The notes below the pieces were generated by a model. The model was not told the origin of the DNA. It made no database searches and was given only the letters and a program-made list of their open reading frames with translations. Below are positions 3,397 to 30,947 of a stretch of DNA of 64,000 nt, piece after piece; position 1 is the first letter of the stretch, and the number at the start of each line of letters is the position of its first letter. The position numbers and the translations under genes are program-made. Origin of the DNA: an uncultured Gammaproteobacteria bacterium (GTDB lineage: Bacteria; Patescibacteriota; Microgenomatia; Levybacterales; GWA1-39-11); contig CAZHDZ010000002.1 in assembly GCA_964531275.1 (NCBI GenBank), positions 122,180-186,179 of the forward strand, given 5' to 3'.

Positions 3397-4533
3397 ATGA
3401 ACTACATAGAGGTTATTGATGAGATATTTAGCCAATTCAAAGGGCAAAAGTTTGCTATAAAATTTTGGAATGGCAAAACAATTCAGTATGGTTCCGGAAA
3501 ATCGCCAGCTTTCACTTTAATTTTCAAAGATGAAGTAACGGTTCAGAGATTGCTTGGTCAGGGTTCATTAGGTTTTGGAGAATCCTACATGGATGAGTCC
3601 TTACAGATAGAGGGTGACATTGAAAGCTATCTTCGCATGCGTCACCAATTCAAGCATATAAAGCCTTCTCTTCGTCTTGCCATTGCGCGAATTCTATCCA
3701 ACAAGCCAAGGCATAAAAGTCGCAAAGATCAAATTTCACATCATTACGATTTGGGTAATGATTTTTTTAAATTAATCTTAGACAACACAACCATGATGTA
3801 CTCATCAGCTTTCTATAAAAATGAAAAAGAAAAATTAAATAGTGCTCAAACAAACAAAATAGAATTTATTTGTAAGTGGCTTGATCTACCAAGTAATTCA
3901 CAAGTTCTCGACCTTGGATCCGGTTGGGCAGGATTTGCAAAAATAGCAGCTCAAAAATTTAAGTGGAATGTTATTGGGCTCACATTAAGCCAAGCGCAGC
4001 TTGCCTATTCGCAGGATCTAACTGAAAAAGAAAAATTGCAGAAGAAAGTAGTATTTAAAGAGCAAGATTTTGTAAAAGCTTTACCGTCAAAAAAGTTTGA
4101 TGGAGCGGTAATTATTGAATCTATAGAGCATGTTGGACAAAATAATCTTCAAAAATTCTTTAAGGATGTAGCAAAAGTTCTAAAATCAGGAGCACCTTTT
4201 ATCATTCAGACAACCGGAAGATACGAAATTCACAGAGTAGATAAGTGGACATTGAAGTATGTATTTCCAGGAGGTTATCTTCCAAGTAAGGGAGAGCTGT
4301 TGAAGTATGCTCAGGATGCAGGATTTACTGTCGAGCTTTTCCGCGATGATACAGATGACTACATTCGTACCATGACGATATGGATACAAAATCTGGAAAA
4401 GAATCAAAAGACAATTGAGAAAATGTTTGACAAGTCATTCTATAGACTATGGTATCTATGGATGCATGGAGCAAAAGTTAATTTTGAAATAGGAGACATG
4501 AGTCTTTTTCGAATAAAGTTGCGTCGAGCATAA
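3397..4533 (+). CDS. cyclopropane-fatty-acyl-phospholipid synthase family SAM-dependent methyltransferase
   Basis: HYDLGNDFFKL...MMYSSAFY and the VLDLGSGWAG SAM-binding motif, with overall length typical of the CFA synthase / mycolic acid methyltransferase family. Confidence 0.75.
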   Translation: MNYIEVIDEIFSQFKGQKFAIKFWNGKTIQYGSGKSPAFTLIFKDEVTVQRLLGQGSLGFGESYMDESLQIEGDIESYLRMRHQFKHIKPSLRLAIARILSNKPRHKSRKDQISHHYDLGNDFFKLILDNTTMMYSSAFYKNEKEKLNSAQTNKIEFICKWLDLPSNSQVLDLGSGWAGFAKIAAQKFKWNVIGLTLSQAQLAYSQDLTEKEKLQKKVVFKEQDFVKALPSKKFDGAVIIESIEHVGQNNLQKFFKDVAKVLKSGAPFIIQTTGRYEIHRVDKWTLKYVFPGGYLPSKGELLKYAQDAGFTVELFRDDTDDYIRTMTIWIQNLEKNQKTIEKMFDKSFYRLWYLWMHGAKVNFEIGDMSLFRIKLRRA

Positions 4534-23754: not shown

Positions 23755-24852
23755 ATGCAGCGAATATTATTGATTCTTAGTTTCTTACTACTGTCCTTCT
23801 TCTTTGCGCCTCAAGTGTTGGCCCAAAGCGATTTTTCTGAAAAGCGATTTGAAGGTACTATTATCGCAATCGCCGAAACAAGCAGAATAATAGAGGCCAA
23901 TGGCAATGCGCATCCATACCAGCGCCTGAAAGTTCTTGGTACTTCGGGCGAATTTAAAGGTAAGACGTATGAAGTAGAAAACGGTTCTTATAACCAGTCC
24001 GGGGTGGTATCCTACTCGGTTGGTGACAAAGTTCTTCTTTCTGCACAAAAAGATGTATCAGGAAGAACAACAATATTTATTAATGATTACGTAAGGCGCG
24101 GCCCTCTCTATCTGCTTGCAGCAATATTTATTGTCCTTGCGATAGTTATTGGTGGAAAACGTGGAATTTTTTCTTTAGTTGGTCTTATCCTTACTTTTGT
24201 CTTGATTTTTACGTTTGTACTTCCTGCAATCTCTTCCGGACAAAATCCAATAGTAATATCAATCATAGCCTCAATTGTAATTGTGCCCGTTACCTTTATT
24301 TTGTCGCATGGGGTTAACAAAAAAACTTTTTGTGCTATTTTCTCAACATTTATAGTTCTTGTTATTACCGCTATTCTCTCCCAGATATTTATTGGCGCAA
24401 CACATCTTTCCGGTTTTTCCTCCGATGAAGTCTCTTTTCTAAATACAATAAAAAAAGGAATGGTGGATGCAAAAGGATTACTCTTTGCAGGTATTTTAAT
24501 AGCCTTATTGGGGATTTTGGATGACATTACAATTGCTCAATCAGCAATCGTATTTCAACTCAAAAAAGCAAATCAAGAGCTAGGATTCCTTGAACTTTTT
24601 AAAAGGGCTATGGACGTAGGACGAGATCATATATCTTCTATGGCAAGTACGTTAATTCTTGTGTATGCAGGTGCGTCCCTACCTCTTCTTTTGCTTTTTA
24701 TAAATAGCCCTCTCCCCTATGAGCAGGTAATAAATTATGAAATTATTGCTGAGGAAATAGTTAGAACTTTAACTGCAAGTATTGGACTTATTTTAGCCGT
24801 ACCTATAACAACACTACTTACTGCCCTTGTTGCTTCGCAAAGAGCTAAATAA
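23755..24852 (+). CDS. YibE/F family membrane protein with signal peptide and N-terminal extracytoplasmic domain
   Basis: Signal peptide MQRILLILSFLLLSFFFAPQVLA, then a roughly 100-aa soluble domain, then the YibE/F-like TM core (LLAGILIALLGILDDITIAQSAIVFQL...). Confidence 0.55.
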   Translation: MQRILLILSFLLLSFFFAPQVLAQSDFSEKRFEGTIIAIAETSRIIEANGNAHPYQRLKVLGTSGEFKGKTYEVENGSYNQSGVVSYSVGDKVLLSAQKDVSGRTTIFINDYVRRGPLYLLAAIFIVLAIVIGGKRGIFSLVGLILTFVLIFTFVLPAISSGQNPIVISIIASIVIVPVTFILSHGVNKKTFCAIFSTFIVLVITAILSQIFIGATHLSGFSSDEVSFLNTIKKGMVDAKGLLFAGILIALLGILDDITIAQSAIVFQLKKANQELGFLELFKRAMDVGRDHISSMASTLILVYAGASLPLLLLFINSPLPYEQVINYEIIAEEIVRTLTASIGLILAVPITTLLTALVASQRAK

Positions 24853-26352: not shown

Positions 26353-27021
26353 ATGCGGATTTTAATTGTTGAGGACGAACAAAAAATAGCCAATTCCCTA
26401 AAGAAAGGTTTTGAGCAAGAATCATATGCGGTTGATGTTACGTATGACGGACGTGATGGATATGAAATGGCAATATCTGAAGAGTACGACGTAATAATTT
26501 TAGATAGACTTATGCCAAAAATGAGTGGTATCGAGCTTTGTAAGAAGCTCCGGGAAGAAAAAAATCATACTCCTATTATTATGTTGACAGCACGCGGGGA
26601 AGTTGATGATAAAGTAGAAGGTCTTAACGCCGGAGCGGATGACTATCTTCCGAAGCCATTTGCATTTGCGGAGCTTCTGGCTCGTGTGAGAGCTGTCTCG
26701 CGGCGTCCAAAAGCTGCTGTCGCCTCAGTTCTCCAGGTCGGTGACTTGACACTTGATTCTGTGACATTCGAAGCTGTTAGGGGGAAAATTAGAATTAGTC
26801 TTTCTAGCAAAGAGTATGCACTTCTAGAATATCTCATGCGGCATAAAGGCAAAGTAGTTAAGAAAGAGCAAATAATGACCCATGTATGGAATTATGATGC
26901 AGACGTGATGCCCAATTCAGTTGAGGTTTATATAACACATTTGAGAAACAAGATTGATAAACCTTTTGTTGGACGAGAGCTAATTACTACGGTTAGAGGT
27001 TTTGGTTATAAAATCGGATAA
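26353..27021 (+). CDS. OmpR-family two-component response regulator
   Basis: Receiver domain (ILIVEDE ... D51 in ILDRLMP ... K in LTARGE) plus a C-terminal winged-helix (LTxxEYxLLEYLMRHKGKVVxKEQI...VEVYITHLRNKID). Confidence 0.85.
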   Translation: MRILIVEDEQKIANSLKKGFEQESYAVDVTYDGRDGYEMAISEEYDVIILDRLMPKMSGIELCKKLREEKNHTPIIMLTARGEVDDKVEGLNAGADDYLPKPFAFAELLARVRAVSRRPKAAVASVLQVGDLTLDSVTFEAVRGKIRISLSSKEYALLEYLMRHKGKVVKKEQIMTHVWNYDADVMPNSVEVYITHLRNKIDKPFVGRELITTVRGFGYKIG

Positions 27022-27026
27022 ATTAG

Positions 27027-27242
27027 ATGTTTCACAACGCTAGATTACAACTCACTGCCTGGTATTTGATAAGCGTAGCCAAGCAAATAAATTAATATGT
27101 TTCACAACGCCAGATTACAATTAACGGCATGGTATTTGCTTAGTGTAACGAAGCAAATAAATATGTTCCATAACGCTAGACTACAACTATCGGCATGGTA
27201 TTTGCTTATGATCAAGGACAAAGCAAATACTAACTATTAAAT
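27027..27242 (+). repeat. three degenerate tandem copies (70, 66 and 80 nt) of the histidine-kinase 5' end, forming short uORFs that encode MFHNARLQL(T/S)AWYL...
   Basis: ATGs at 27027, 27097 and 27163, with the real gene ATG at 27243. Each copy starts atgttYcaYaacgcNagaYtWcaaYtNNcNgcMtggtatttg, and the differences fall almost exclusively at synonymous positions. Confidence 0.8.
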
Positions 27243-28253
27243 ATGTTCCATAACGCAAGACTTCAATTAACGGCATGGTATTTGCTTATGATCATGTTCA
27301 TTAGCCTTATTTTTAGCGTGGTCATTTATGCAAATGTCGATCGTGAATTAGTAAGATTCGAGAAATTTCAGGAATTAAGCCGTGATAGAGCCGCTCAATA
27401 TTTTGGGTCATATCCAGGAGCGGAAATCCCCAACACTGTTGACGAGCAACTTATAAATGAAGCAAGAGGTAGACTTTTAAGTGACCTTGTAATTTTAAAT
27501 GTTTGTATTCTCATTGCTGCAGGTGTTGCGGGGTACTTTTTAGCTGGTAGAACACTTACCCCCATTAGAAAAATGATTGAGGATCAGTCTCGATTCTTTG
27601 GAGATGCATCTCACGAGCTCAAAACGCCAATCACCTCTCTCAAGTCTGAAATAGAAATTTATCTTCGACTAAAGAAAAAAAGCTTAAAAGATGCTGACGA
27701 GGTGTTGAAAAGTAACCTTGAAGAAGTTAACAGAATGCAAGACTTAACTAATAACTTACTAACGCTCGCAACGCTTGAAAAAGCAGGTCAAAAGCTAAAT
27801 TTTACCCAAGTATTTATTCGTGAAGTACTCTTGGAAGCTTCAAAAAATGTAAGCGCACAAGCAAAGAAGAAAAAGACCAGCATTACAATAAAGGGTCAAA
27901 ATATTTCTTTTTCAGGCAATCAAAATAGTCTCATTCAGTTATTTACTATTCTTTTTGACAATGCCATTAAATATAGTAAGGACTCAAGCAAGATTGTTGC
28001 AAGCGCCCAAAAGACGAACGGATTCGTGAGTATAAAGGTAGTAGATAATGGAATAGGAATTCCTGAGGATGAAATAGAGAATATATTTGACAGATTTTAT
28101 AGAGTTGATAAATCAAGAACGTCGGGTGACGCTGGAGGTTTTGGCCTTGGGCTTTCGATAGCAAAAGAAATTGTTCTACTTCACGGTGGCGAAATACAAG
28201 TTAAAAGTTCGTCTTCCGGCTCTACATTTACGATCGATATCCCCTCAGCATAG
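27243..28253 (+). CDS. sensor histidine kinase (HisKA + HATPase_c), partner of the upstream OmpR regulator
   Basis: H-box GDASHELKTPITSL, N-box FDNAIKYS, and G boxes DNGIGIPED and GGFGLGLSIAKEIV, with two N-terminal TM segments. Confidence 0.85.
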   Translation: MFHNARLQLTAWYLLMIMFISLIFSVVIYANVDRELVRFEKFQELSRDRAAQYFGSYPGAEIPNTVDEQLINEARGRLLSDLVILNVCILIAAGVAGYFLAGRTLTPIRKMIEDQSRFFGDASHELKTPITSLKSEIEIYLRLKKKSLKDADEVLKSNLEEVNRMQDLTNNLLTLATLEKAGQKLNFTQVFIREVLLEASKNVSAQAKKKKTSITIKGQNISFSGNQNSLIQLFTILFDNAIKYSKDSSKIVASAQKTNGFVSIKVVDNGIGIPEDEIENIFDRFYRVDKSRTSGDAGGFGLGLSIAKEIVLLHGGEIQVKSSSSGSTFTIDIPSA

Positions 28254-28290: not shown

Positions 28291-29244
28291 ATGAGCTCAG
28301 ATGAGGTACATAAATATTTTGAAGTAGGGTTAAAAAGCGGAAAAAGCATTGCTGACATTAAAGCAGAGCTTATTTCTGCAGGAGTTGAGCCTACTTTGAT
28401 TGATACTGTAGCTGCAGAAGTAGAAAAGATTAGGGGAGAAATGCCGGAAGCCCCGAATCCAGCATCTCTTTCAAAAAGGATGTACCCCATAATTACTATC
28501 AATCGCATAAAGGATCCCAAAAGAAGCTATGCATTCCCTATATTTGGAGGCTTAACGAAGGGAATTATCCTAATTCCACAATTTGCCATGCTCTGGTTTG
28601 CTTCTCTATGTATGGGAGTGGGACTTCTTATTAACCCTTTTGTAGTGCTTTTTACGGGCAAATACTGGATGCCTGCCTATAATTGGGTTGTCCGATTCGT
28701 CAACATACAGGTAAAAATAAGTTTTTTCTTCAGTGGACTAACCAATAGATATCCTGGATTCAACTTCTCAATCCAAGACAGCTATATAGTAACTGTGCCC
28801 TATCCGACAGCTCCTAGCAAGCTATATGCTATACCTCTCTTTGGATTTGCGGTGAGAGCCATATTAACTCTTCCCTTTAATATTTACTCCTCAGTACTCA
28901 CGAGTGGTAGCTCTGTAATGGCTTCATTCTCTTCTTTCTCAGTTCTTTTCAAAGGATATTATCCGGAAAGTACATATGAGCTAGAAAGAGATTCATTAAG
29001 AGTTAATCTTGCTGGAACTCTGTACTTTGCGGGTATCAGTGACACTCTTCCCACCTATAAAATTTCAAAAAATCATTTAGGACTTAAGATGATATTTATA
29101 ATAATTGGCGCAATTTTAACAATTTTGAATATGTTAAGTAATTTCAGTGATCAAAATGATTCTCAAGGTAGAAATAGATATAAATCCTATCTAACACCCA
29201 CTCCAACATACGAAATTCCCTATAAAATAGAAAATACCAACTAA
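28291..29244 (+). CDS. DUF4389 domain membrane protein (two repeats)
   Basis: VLFTGKYWMPAYNWVVRFVNIQVKISFFFSGLTNRYPGFNF matches the DUF4389 signature (LFTGRYP ... W..RV.AY ... TDxYPPF); a second repeat has KGYYPESTYEL. Confidence 0.5.
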   Translation: MSSDEVHKYFEVGLKSGKSIADIKAELISAGVEPTLIDTVAAEVEKIRGEMPEAPNPASLSKRMYPIITINRIKDPKRSYAFPIFGGLTKGIILIPQFAMLWFASLCMGVGLLINPFVVLFTGKYWMPAYNWVVRFVNIQVKISFFFSGLTNRYPGFNFSIQDSYIVTVPYPTAPSKLYAIPLFGFAVRAILTLPFNIYSSVLTSGSSVMASFSSFSVLFKGYYPESTYELERDSLRVNLAGTLYFAGISDTLPTYKISKNHLGLKMIFIIIGAILTILNMLSNFSDQNDSQGRNRYKSYLTPTPTYEIPYKIENTN

Positions 29245-29429: not shown

Positions 29430-30707
29430 ATGAATAAAACATTTTACAAAAATAATAATGGTACTTCTGGCTCAGGTGGAAGAAGAAGCTTTGCTGGTCG
29501 TGGCAGCTACACCCAGTCGGGAAGCTACAACCAAAAAGGTGGTAGTCTTTCCAGAAATCCTCATGCATTTAGAAGCACACCACAAATGCGTGGTGGAAGA
29601 AAAATGTCCACATTTAATCCTTCAATGCTCGTAAATGAAGTAAAGGAATACACTCCTGTAGAGCAGTTTGTCCCAATACATAAATTCACAGACTTTAATT
29701 TAGATGAAAGATTAATGGCAAATATTGTTTCAAAAGGCTACGAACTTCCTACCCCTGTTCAAGATGAAGGTATTATTCCCATGCTTGAAGGCAAGGATAT
29801 TATCGGAATTGCCAATACAGGTACGGGAAAAACTGCTGCCTTTTTGATACCACTCATAAATAAAGTTCTTCAAGACCGTAACAAAAAGGTAATTATATTA
29901 GCTCCAACCCGCGAATTAGCTGTTCAGATTAGGGACGAATTTGAAGATTTTACGCGCGGTATGCATATCTACTCAGTGCTTTTAATAGGAGGGGTTAATG
30001 CTTATAGACAGAAAATGGGCTTGAGAAATGAATTTAATTTTGTGATAGGAACCCCTGGACGTGTGAAAGACATGATAATGGATCGAAAATTAAATCTTGC
30101 ACTCTTTGATAGTGTGGTTCTTGATGAGGCAGACCACATGGTAGACATTGGATTTATTCATGACGTTAAATACTTTATTTCGCTTCTTCCAAGAAAAAGA
30201 CAGTCTCTTTTCTTTTCGGCAACAATTGATGGAAAAGTTAAGGAAATCCTTAATGATTTCGTGACCAATCCAGTAACAATTTCTGTCAAAACTCACGATA
30301 CTGCTGATAATGTAGAGCAAGAAGTTATCAAGACTGAAAGCCAGAACAGAAAAATTGAGCAGCTCCATGACTTACTTATCAAGAAAAATTACGAAAAAGT
30401 TATAATTTTCGGTCGCACAAAATGGGGAGTACAAAAGGTCTCTGACGAATTAAATAGACGAGGGTTCAAAACAGGAGCGATCCATGGCAATAAGAACCAA
30501 AATCAAAGACAAAGAACCCTCACTCAATTTAAAAGGAACGAACTAACTATTCTTCTAGCAACTGACGTTGCCGCAAGAGGACTTGATATTGATGATGTGT
30601 CACACGTTATAAATTACGATATGCCGGCAACTTATGAAGATTATATTCATAGAATTGGTCGTACTGGACGTGCAAATAAGCGTGGGACTGCCTTAACTTT
30701 CGTCTAG
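29430..30707 (+). CDS. DEAD-box ATP-dependent RNA helicase with an Arg/Gly/Ser-rich N-terminal extension
   Basis: Q motif (LPTPVQ), motif I ANTGTGKTAAF, motif II VLDEADHM, motif III SAT, and motif VI HRIGRTGRA. The N-terminal 60 aa are rich in GGRR/RGG. Confidence 0.85.
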   Translation: MNKTFYKNNNGTSGSGGRRSFAGRGSYTQSGSYNQKGGSLSRNPHAFRSTPQMRGGRKMSTFNPSMLVNEVKEYTPVEQFVPIHKFTDFNLDERLMANIVSKGYELPTPVQDEGIIPMLEGKDIIGIANTGTGKTAAFLIPLINKVLQDRNKKVIILAPTRELAVQIRDEFEDFTRGMHIYSVLLIGGVNAYRQKMGLRNEFNFVIGTPGRVKDMIMDRKLNLALFDSVVLDEADHMVDIGFIHDVKYFISLLPRKRQSLFFSATIDGKVKEILNDFVTNPVTISVKTHDTADNVEQEVIKTESQNRKIEQLHDLLIKKNYEKVIIFGRTKWGVQKVSDELNRRGFKTGAIHGNKNQNQRQRTLTQFKRNELTILLATDVAARGLDIDDVSHVINYDMPATYEDYIHRIGRTGRANKRGTALTFV

Positions 30708-30947
30708 CGCTATTAGCTTCTCTTTTTCTTTCTTTGGTAACTTTTTAATTGCAATTTCCCTTTTTAATGCTTTGCTGAGATTTTCTGCCTCCTCTTTATA
30801 AACTAACTCGACAGGTCGTCTTCCCGTTGTGTATTTTGCACCACCCTTTTCTATTCCATTGTGCTCTTTCAATCTCCTTTCCAAGTCGCGCGCTATCCCG
30901 CAATAGTATGAGTTATCTCGACATTTTAATAGGTATACAAAATACAT
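30693..30947 (-). CDS. GIY-YIG nuclease superfamily protein (UPF0213/YhbQ-like)
   Basis: YFVYLLKCRDNSYYCGIARDLERRLKEHN...GAKYT; 84 aa. Confidence 0.7.
   Translation of the reverse strand: MYFVYLLKCRDNSYYCGIARDLERRLKEHNGIEKGGAKYTTGRRPVELVYKEEAENLSKALKREIAIKKLPKKEKEKLIALDES

Follow-up and report, generated by a model that had tools for sequence, protein, structure and literature searches.

How does a sensor histidine kinase gene come to be preceded by three further copies of its own beginning, copies that differ from it almost only at silent sites? The question is raised by a 64,000-nucleotide (nt) stretch of metagenomic DNA (assembly GCA_964531275.1, contig CAZHDZ010000002.1, forward-strand positions 122,180 to 186,179), which was analysed as a whole and is referred to here as the window; its source is titled an uncultured Gammaproteobacteria bacterium and is placed by GTDB in the Levybacterales of the Patescibacteriota, within the candidate phyla radiation (CPR). 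In this window, the 221 nt that separate a response regulator gene from the kinase gene are filled by three tandem units, each of which begins like the kinase itself. A first-pass annotation, made from the letters of the sequence and a list of open reading frames (ORFs), had read these units as translated leader peptides under purifying selection. We give an even chance to another explanation, namely that the array is a lineage-specific tandem partial duplication whose units are by-products of recombination; direct selection on the encoded peptides is possible but is not needed to account for it.

Structure of the tandem array

The start of the kinase gene is present four times in tandem, with ATG codons at 27027, 27097, 27163 and 27243, the last being the real start. 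Tandem Repeats Finder (TRF) places the repeat at 27027-27208 with a period of 66-70 nt, 2.7 copies and 82% matches. Each upstream unit consists of the kinase ATG and the first 14 (copy 1), 15 (copy 2) or 17 (copy 3) codons, the duplicated segment being kinase codons 1-17 (27243-27293, forward strand as for all features of the array), followed by a tail of 24-30 nt with no recognisable similarity to the kinase. Copy 1 (27027-27096, 70 nt) carries kinase codons 1-14, an isoleucine at codon 15 and the tail SVAKQIN; its ORF (27027-27095) encodes 22 amino acids (aa), MFHNARLQLTAWYLISVAKQIN, and its stop (27093-27095) lies 1 nt before the next ATG. Copy 2 (27097-27162, 66 nt) carries codons 1-15 and the tail SVTKQIN; it lacks a stop and reads on in frame into copy 3 (27163-27242, 80 nt), which carries codons 1-17 with a threonine-to-serine change at codon 10 (T10S) and the tail KDKANTNY. 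The fused ORF (27097-27240) encodes 47 aa and ends in a stop at 27238-27240, leaving 2 nt to the kinase ATG. The four copies, with the ATGs, ORFs and codon list given in the first-pass annotation, were all recovered from the sequence, the ORF list, TRF and a codon table.

The regulator gene (26353-27021, +) encodes an OmpR-type protein of 222 aa with the Pfam domains Response_reg and Trans_reg_C. Its TAA stop (27019-27021) is followed by the 5-nt gap ATTAG (27022-27026, +) before the first ATG, and this gap is, as read from the sequence, the presumed ancestral regulator-kinase coupling junction. The kinase (27243-28253, +) has 336 aa and comprises a first transmembrane helix (TM1), a short outer loop, a second transmembrane helix (TM2) and the Pfam domains HisKA and HATPase_c.

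It is very improbable that the array is an assembly artefact in which strain variants of one kinase start were strung in tandem. Such an origin would suit a metagenome-assembled genome (MAG), and the scaffold of a related assembly, L004, is interrupted by a gap of 100 N precisely at the junction. However, run SRR12762304 gave a Logan contig without a single mismatch to the window over 3032 nt, the array among them; as this contig and the window assembly possibly come from the same reads, the agreement is one between assemblers and not between samples. The longest exact repeat within the array is 25 nt, so that an assembly graph with k ≥ 27 traverses it unambiguously. Furthermore, the sequences of the tails and of the joins between units are unique and must have been present in the reads, and assemblers collapse strain variants rather than concatenating them.

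Divergence among the copies

Across the 14 codons shared by all four copies there are 10 variable sites, which require at least 11 events; ten of these are synonymous, one is a replacement (T10S in copy 3), and codon position 2 is not changed at all. Under random substitution the probability of at least 10 synonymous events out of 11 is 8e-7 to 2e-5 (kappa 1-4), which rules out chance as the source of the bias and bears out the near-exclusively silent divergence reported earlier. The ratio check that had been recommended with it gave a nonsynonymous divergence (dN) of about 0.03 and a synonymous divergence (dS) of at least 0.5 among the copies. At codon 15, copy 1 has a second conservative change, from leucine to isoleucine (L15I).

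Three other sources of the bias were rejected. An antisense ORF (27102-27221, -) shares its wobble positions with the sense frame, but antisense coding requires more amino-acid changes (three between copies 2 and 3, against one in the sense frame), and the two TTA/CTA first-position changes in leucine codons are silent in the sense frame only. Mutagenesis by a diversity-generating retroelement was set aside because the differences are not adenine-specific, although no reverse transcriptase was searched for. Homogenising gene conversion with the resident kinase start as donor predicts few silent differences and a dN/dS of about 0.5-0.75; with nine silent differences between copy 1 and the kinase, this plain form of conversion is rejected.

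The haplotypes of the copies are unequal. Copy 1 is the most divergent, with nine silent and no replacement changes against the kinase start over the 14 codons, which amounts to differences at 9 of the 16 silent-capable sites. This divergence of 9/42 nt is approximately that found between the starts of different alleles (4-11/42). Copy 2 is a chimera, being like copy 1 at variable sites 6-21 and like the kinase at sites 25-45, with a single switch located between sites 21 and 25 (permutation P = 0.009) and 25 nt of exact identity with 27264-27288. Copy 3 is intermediate or mosaic, and the four-gamete test fails for three site pairs within the array. Because copy 2 is chimeric and copy 3 intermediate or mosaic, the silent-only signal comes mainly from one deep comparison, that of the copy 1 haplotype with the kinase haplotype. 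The only changes private to a single copy are one silent change in copy 2, T10S in copy 3, at a residue that is invariant in the family, and L15I in copy 1, which gives no clear silent excess among mutations that arose in situ.

No donor allele was found for the copy 1 haplotype. The tails of copies 1-3 showed nothing beyond chance when compared with kinase nt 43-140 and with the regulator 3' ends of five alleles (P 0.13-1.0), and matches seen by eye with kinase codons 25-31, with the end of the window's regulator and with the end of the regulator of a related locus, L086, did not exceed those of shuffled sequences.

Recombination at the regulator-kinase junction

The closest alleles to that of the window are of the L002 and L003 types, which have 86-88% protein identity to it and occur in more than 20 samples. 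L002 and L003 are 100% identical across the DUF192 gene, Obg and regulator nt 1-308. The stretch that follows, regulator nt 309-666, contains 25 differences, all silent (third-position identity 81%), and the spacer between regulator and kinase is 84% identical, with three indels and with stops that differ in place. In kinase codons 1-30, 24 of the 30 third positions are identical, whereas saturation of the silent sites sets in at about codon 31 (4-fold identity 40%), the overall identity being 99.9% for Obg and 76% for the kinase. A saturated kinase body between near-identical flanks indicates that the body was replaced by that of a distant allele, by a crossover at about codon 30, within the conserved 5' end; the upstream array was left in place during this replacement. 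In a profile of L088 against L098, divergence extends from the kinase into the DUF4389 gene to about +2000, after which identity is about 90% or more.

A second exchange is visible between L002 and L098, which have only 13 differences over 2300 nt, 10 of them within +20 to +68 of the kinase ORF. This 49-nt patch (3362-3411 in L002, 2529-2578 in L098) covers kinase codons 7-23; nine of its ten differences are silent and the tenth is M16L. Its occurrence within otherwise near-identical strains indicates the import of a short patch into the segment that is duplicated in the window. Both exchange events took place among a handful of sister strains, within the time of 0.1% Obg divergence. The junction can on these alignments be called a proven recombination hotspot, and the crossovers, as mapped from the sequences, fall inside the conserved segment that is duplicated, at about codon 30, at +20 to +68 and at the switch in copy 2; by breakpoint analysis, kinase codons 1-30 form the crossover zone in the sister strains. 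It may be added that in codons 12-22 the L098 version of the patch is similar to L085, a more distant allele.

As silent-only patches are imported at this junction, silent-only divergence can be imported ready-made from functional alleles. The earlier argument from silent changes to selection on the peptides therefore holds in part: the bias is indeed beyond chance, but it is not a unique signature of such selection, recombination importing the same pattern. We propose that the array was formed and reshuffled at a hotspot that would coincide with the kinase gene's strongly conserved 5' end. The silent differences would mostly have arisen while the sequences were functional kinase starts, and the haplotypes may have been gathered by replacement of kinase alleles, by import of short patches into the kinase 5' end, and by gene conversion or unequal crossing-over inside the array, in an order that we reconstruct only tentatively.

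Distribution of the array among relatives

Most of about 28 other loci of the family have a single kinase start adjoining the regulator stop. No second copy of the start was found in some 25 loci of the family taken from GTDB genomes (among the matches listed, mostly distant relatives), nor in loci L085-L087, which have 58-63% identity. Two degenerate patterns for tandem starts 15-45 or 46-76 nt apart gave 0 matches in 241 million metagenome records of the Joint Genome Institute. The 47-aa ORF found no match among 5.8 billion proteins in a search whose word filter may miss so short a query, and exact-protein look-ups with the regulator and the kinase matched only the one Logan contig. The array of the window is unique to one lineage and was found in one sample; the search of related genomes proposed in the first-pass annotation yielded no relative that keeps an ATG-proximal array of this kind.

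A different array occupies the same place in L002 and L003, whose spacers of 100-104 nt hold two tandem units, here called B units, that are related to each other (z = 5-15). The B units begin with ATGTTYCWTGACG, the first four kinase codons, and retain only the first 13 nt or so of the start; homology to the kinase start beyond that point is marginal (8-46 of 500 shuffles, uncorrected) and was not accepted, and homology to the window copies past the first 13 nt is likewise marginal only. The first decayed unit begins 5 nt (L002) or 2 nt (L003) after the regulator stop. The ORFs of these units, which include MFLDDL and MFHDGP, each followed by a stop, are not conserved: L002 has a 29-codon upstream ORF (uORF) that leaves 5 nt free after the regulator stop and another 5 nt ahead of the kinase ATG, and L003 has a 6-codon uORF together with one of 31 codons that runs across the kinase start in another frame. 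The divergence of the L002 and L003 spacers is about that of third codon positions (Fisher P = 0.59), which indicates that the B array drifts neutrally. The annotation had held that related loci with copies decaying at neutral rates would speak against selection on the peptides. The L002 and L003 units come close to this, as they are neutral and their stops and frames differ, while their homology past 13 nt is marginal.

The L108 allele (67% identity) has an unrelated spacer of 52 nt (1105-1156) without a uORF. As the spacers of L002 and L003, of L108 and of the window differ from one another, the regulator-kinase junction is, on the sequences compared, hypervariable. Two side observations concern this group of alleles. 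The spacer of the L108 type (ENA contig) is rich in CTAGCT repeats and contains a TATATT box 10 nt upstream of the ATG; the kinase may there have a promoter of its own. In L004 (GCA_964436385.1), the sister of L108, a run of exactly 100 N (4402-4501) begins 22 nt upstream of the regulator stop and extends as far as the kinase ATG.

The kinase family and its N-terminus

The kinase belongs to a large family of the Patescibacteria/CPR, with matches of Microgenomates type (Levy-, Shapiro-, Woese- and Gottesmanbacteria). The family N-terminus, MF.SARLKLTAWYLLIIM, is almost invariant, and in 36 homologues M1, F2, R6, L9, T10, W12, Y13 and L14 do not vary. At most loci of the family, regulator stop and kinase ATG either overlap or are 0-13 nt apart, from which tight translational coupling is deduced as the ancestral state.

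In the AlphaFold2 model of the kinase (mean pLDDT, the predicted local distance difference test score, 71) two long helices span residues 2-54 and 64-142. The helix 2-54 comprises a cytoplasmic cap, TM1 and an outer helix, and the hydrophobic core of TM1 is formed by its residues from about 15 to 30. The copies end at codons 14-17 and so comprise the cap and the initial turns of TM1 but exclude the core. Since the kinase homology ends before the core of TM1, the copies do not encode a signal anchor, and the suggestion that they are decoys of the first transmembrane or signal-anchor segment is not sustained. The tails are polar (SVAKQIN and KDKANTNY), and no transmembrane helix is present in the small ORFs.

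Many database entries for the family start 15-35 residues late because gene callers picked an internal ATG in TM1 (MIMF.. or MFIS..); examples are P0004, P0005, P0023, P0035, P0036, P0038, P0039 and P0046. The full conserved N-terminus is encoded in all four loci read (L004 and L085-L087). The truncated calls P0004, P0023 and P0036 were considered as hidden arrays and rejected as choices of the gene caller, there being one start per locus. Several GTDB representative MAGs with a kinase of Patescibacteria type are titled 'uncultured Gammaproteobacteria/Pseudomonadales bacterium' (loci L005, L007, L009-L012, L016, L019-L023, L025 and L030); the N-terminal motif is present where checked, and the names look unreliable.

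Translation of the upstream ORFs

The stop-to-start gaps along the array are 5 nt from the regulator to copy 1, 1 nt from copy 1 to copy 2 and 2 nt from the fused ORF to the kinase. A motif resembling the Shine-Dalgarno (SD) sequence precedes 8 of the 53 genes of the window (ORFs of at least 120 aa) and none of the four ATGs, an absence that is unspecific at such a frequency. There is no convincing -10 box before 27243 and no terminator-like site in 27022-27242. The spacer has no Rfam match at E ≤ 1 and no alternative RNA structures of the attenuation type (terminator/antiterminator or start masking); the predicted fold of 27000-27300 is not significant (z = -0.52), and two weak promoter hits at 27066-27121 do not exceed the expectation from shuffled sequences.

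Termination-reinitiation coupling is known to collapse at a gap of about 20 nt and needs gaps far below this (PMC10666635), and in a genome as poor in SD motifs as this one an untranslated spacer of 221 nt would consequently uncouple the kinase. The intact ATGs and the stop-to-start chain make translation of the copies plausible, and the chain suggests a termination-reinitiation relay. With the ATG of copy 1 at what would be the ancestral position of the kinase start, 5 nt past the regulator stop, ribosomes leaving the regulator would most likely reinitiate on copy 1, then on the fused ORF and then on the kinase. Such a relay would keep the displaced kinase coupled to the regulator, and each hand-over would probably be incomplete, which may lower the yield of kinase relative to regulator. 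It would be a design that is not conserved, as judged from L002, which has one spanning uORF, and L003, which does not. Of the earlier view that the copies are translated leader peptides, translation remains plausible from the intact ATGs and the 5/1/2-nt chain, while the array is conserved in no relative.

A TAGAAT box lies 7 nt upstream of the regulator ATG and suggests a start of leaderless type for this gene. TATAAT-like boxes 6-8 nt before the ATG were observed for many genes of the window, for example those at 23755, 25312, 26353, 28291 and 43859 (-), which suggests that leaderless transcripts may be widespread in this CPR genome.

Other repeats and neighbouring genes

The window contains another tandem duplication close to an ATG. 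At 634-716, a 38-nt unit is repeated 2.2 times and includes a promoter-like box, TTTGATATACT, together with the beginning of an ORF at 691 (start codon and first six codons); in the upstream copy the ATG is a GTG and four of the six codons specify another amino acid (VGIQRN against MDVQGN). Directly upstream of this repeat and of the ORF at 691, a 55-nt unit is repeated 3.4 times (446-633, 96% matches), each unit having an inverted repeat CTAAAG...CTTTAG; it is a candidate operator array or small repeat element.

Downstream of the kinase lies a gene for a DUF4389 membrane protein (28291-29244, +; Pfam), which in the sister strains is swapped jointly with the kinase body. The variable cassette consists of the kinase body from about codon 31 on and the DUF4389 gene, and identity resumes in a DEAD-box helicase gene. 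The length of the DUF4389 protein varies with the allele (317, 254 or 246 aa). Near the right edge of the cassette a gene encodes a stand-alone GIY-YIG nuclease of 84 aa (30693-30947, -), and its synteny just past the helicase is kept in the window, L004, L086, L098 and L108.

Weighing the explanations

The formation of the array as a by-product of recombination is favoured because exchange events are documented at the junction, because the array is not conserved, because the array of the sister alleles is neutral and because the changes private to single copies show no clear silent excess. Several observations nevertheless weigh against it. An import that keeps the array requires a left crossover inside or beside the last copy, and no donor is known for the window's lineage, which is carried by one sample only. 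The tails of copies 1 and 2 differ at 3-5 of 21-24 nt and by a 4-nt indel; if this is neutral decay, several replacements would be expected in the kinase-like parts and at most two are seen, so that either repeated resetting by conversion or selection is required. A pure snapshot model, in which copies were laid down at different times and changed by point mutation only, was rejected for 9 of 9 silent changes (P ~ 3e-4) and for 10 of 11 (P ~ 7e-4, binomial). The other duplicated gene start, at 634-709, shows decay dominated by replacements, which makes the kinase copies atypical for neutral duplicates. Codons 7 and 9 form stepwise silent series from copy 1 through copy 3 to the kinase (TTA/CTA/CTT and CTC/CTA/TTA) that look like gradual evolution in situ under constraint.

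Some of these features speak for translated 'N-terminal mimic' leader peptides whose 14-residue motif is under direct purifying selection, a reading that we hold to be possible though the less probable of the two. The peptides would act in trans, as decoys of the invariant cap, or in cis, as nascent chains, and would tune the production or activity of the kinase. Besides the ten silent changes out of eleven with none at codon position 2, the stepwise series at codons 7 and 9 and the replacement-driven decay of the neutral control at 634-709, it is consistent with the comparison of copies 1 and 2 over 22 codons (8 silent and 2 conservative changes; binomial P ~ 3e-4 at p(silent) = 0.24), with the better preservation of the kinase-like parts than of the adjoining tails, with ORFs that are intact and chained, and with a duplicated segment that is precisely the family-invariant motif from M1 to L14. 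Yet the array is confined to one lineage, the sister alleles having neutral, decaying units and the rest of the family none, and with copy 2 chimeric the signal is mostly one haplotype comparison, copy 1 with the kinase, in exactly the segment into which silent-only patches are documented to have been imported. Copy 3 is altered at the invariant T10, and the tails are in different frames in copies 1 and 2 and in copy 3, so that at most 14 residues could matter. The core of the transmembrane helix is absent, a product of 22 aa barely clears the ribosome tunnel, and there is no known partner or mechanism. In its full form, in which all three upstream ORFs are translated, the motif is directly selected and the mimic peptides tune the sensor kinase, the proposal is a little less likely again, at about one chance in four; the tuning could operate through competition for a recogniser of the N-terminal cap, or through a nascent-chain relay that sets the ratio of kinase to regulator.

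An indirect form of constraint was also considered, in which the peptides have no function and replacements that arise in a copy are converted into the kinase and purged there, with the result that in very large populations the copies stay protein-like while their silent sites drift. The chimeric copy 2 and tracts of 24-25 nt that match the kinase start exactly show that sequence is exchanged within the array, the real N-terminus is under very strong purifying selection, and the idea explains why the kinase-homologous part is preserved and the tails are not. We consider it unlikely, because conversion frequent enough to matter should homogenise the silent sites, of which copy 1 differs at 9 of 16, because the selection coefficient, being the product of conversion rate and fitness cost, would be tiny, and because it has no quantitative support. 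Taken together, an ordinary origin of the array is at least as likely as one in which the peptides serve as a device.

If the array consists of recombination by-products, the most conserved stretch of the kinase would serve as the crossover point for swaps of sensor cassettes among near-identical strains of uncultured CPR bacteria, and such swapping would leave debris at the junction. An imported signature of the dN/dS type could then falsely suggest selection on short ORFs, a caution for the discovery of small ORFs in metagenomes. The chain of ORFs is a possible way for coupling to survive an insertion of 221 nt in a genome without SD sites. Were the peptides themselves selected, duplication of a gene's own start would be a new route to a leader peptide and would give a handle on the unexplained invariance of the family N-terminus.

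Comparison with known systems

In the literature searched we found no account of uORFs that are tandem copies of the start of their own gene. The earlier remark that the arrangement was undescribed has thus held up, as literature searches gave no precedent and very large databases no second instance. In Pseudomonas putida, the short uORF cbrX is required for translation of CbrA whatever its peptide sequence (PMC6591292). As in cbrX-cbrA, a short ORF here ends right at the kinase start (stop at 27238-27240, ATG at 27243), and the irrelevance of the peptide's identity is the behaviour that the relay model would by analogy predict. However, cbrX is one conserved ORF unrelated to the N-terminus of CbrA, whereas three tandem self-copies lie between regulator and kinase here, in one lineage that is known from sequence alone. 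The abutting stops and starts, with gaps of 1-5 nt in the window, also resemble those of close or overlapping coupled gene pairs (PMC6728339, PMC10666635). Those are two-gene junctions, and here the 221-nt insertion would break the coupling unless the ORFs pass ribosomes on serially. A serial relay built from copies of the start of the downstream gene was not found in the literature searched.

The agr specificity groups of Staphylococcus aureus are allelic sensor cassettes that are exchanged by recombination; we know of no agr locus with duplicated kinase starts at the crossover site. As with agr (see also PMC8768832), a variable block of a sensor kinase is swapped here between near-identical strains with crossovers in conserved flanks. 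Unlike agr, the cassette consists of the whole kinase from about codon 31 together with the DUF4389 gene, and no pheromone gene is evident. Rhs genes and the toxin genes of contact-dependent inhibition (CDI) are accompanied by displaced 'orphan' fragments, which lie downstream and retain the displaced variable module. The likeness to these is that partial copies, which keep the conserved junction sequence, pile up where recombination acts at a conserved junction motif; the fragments here differ in lying upstream and in holding only 14-17 conserved codons and a short tail.

MgrB and SafA are small modulators of sensor kinases, and TrpL, SecM and MifM are regulatory leader or arrest peptides. 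The upstream ORFs of the window are, like these, short ORFs tied to the control of a sensor or a downstream gene, and this is the class that mimic peptides would join. They differ from its members in having no transmembrane core, no attenuator or SD-masking RNA, no homologues in the protein search and no wider conservation. While it is a strict member of none of these classes, the locus would by analogy be most like a translationally coupled uORF placed in an agr-like allelic cassette and built from orphan-like fragments of the kinase start.

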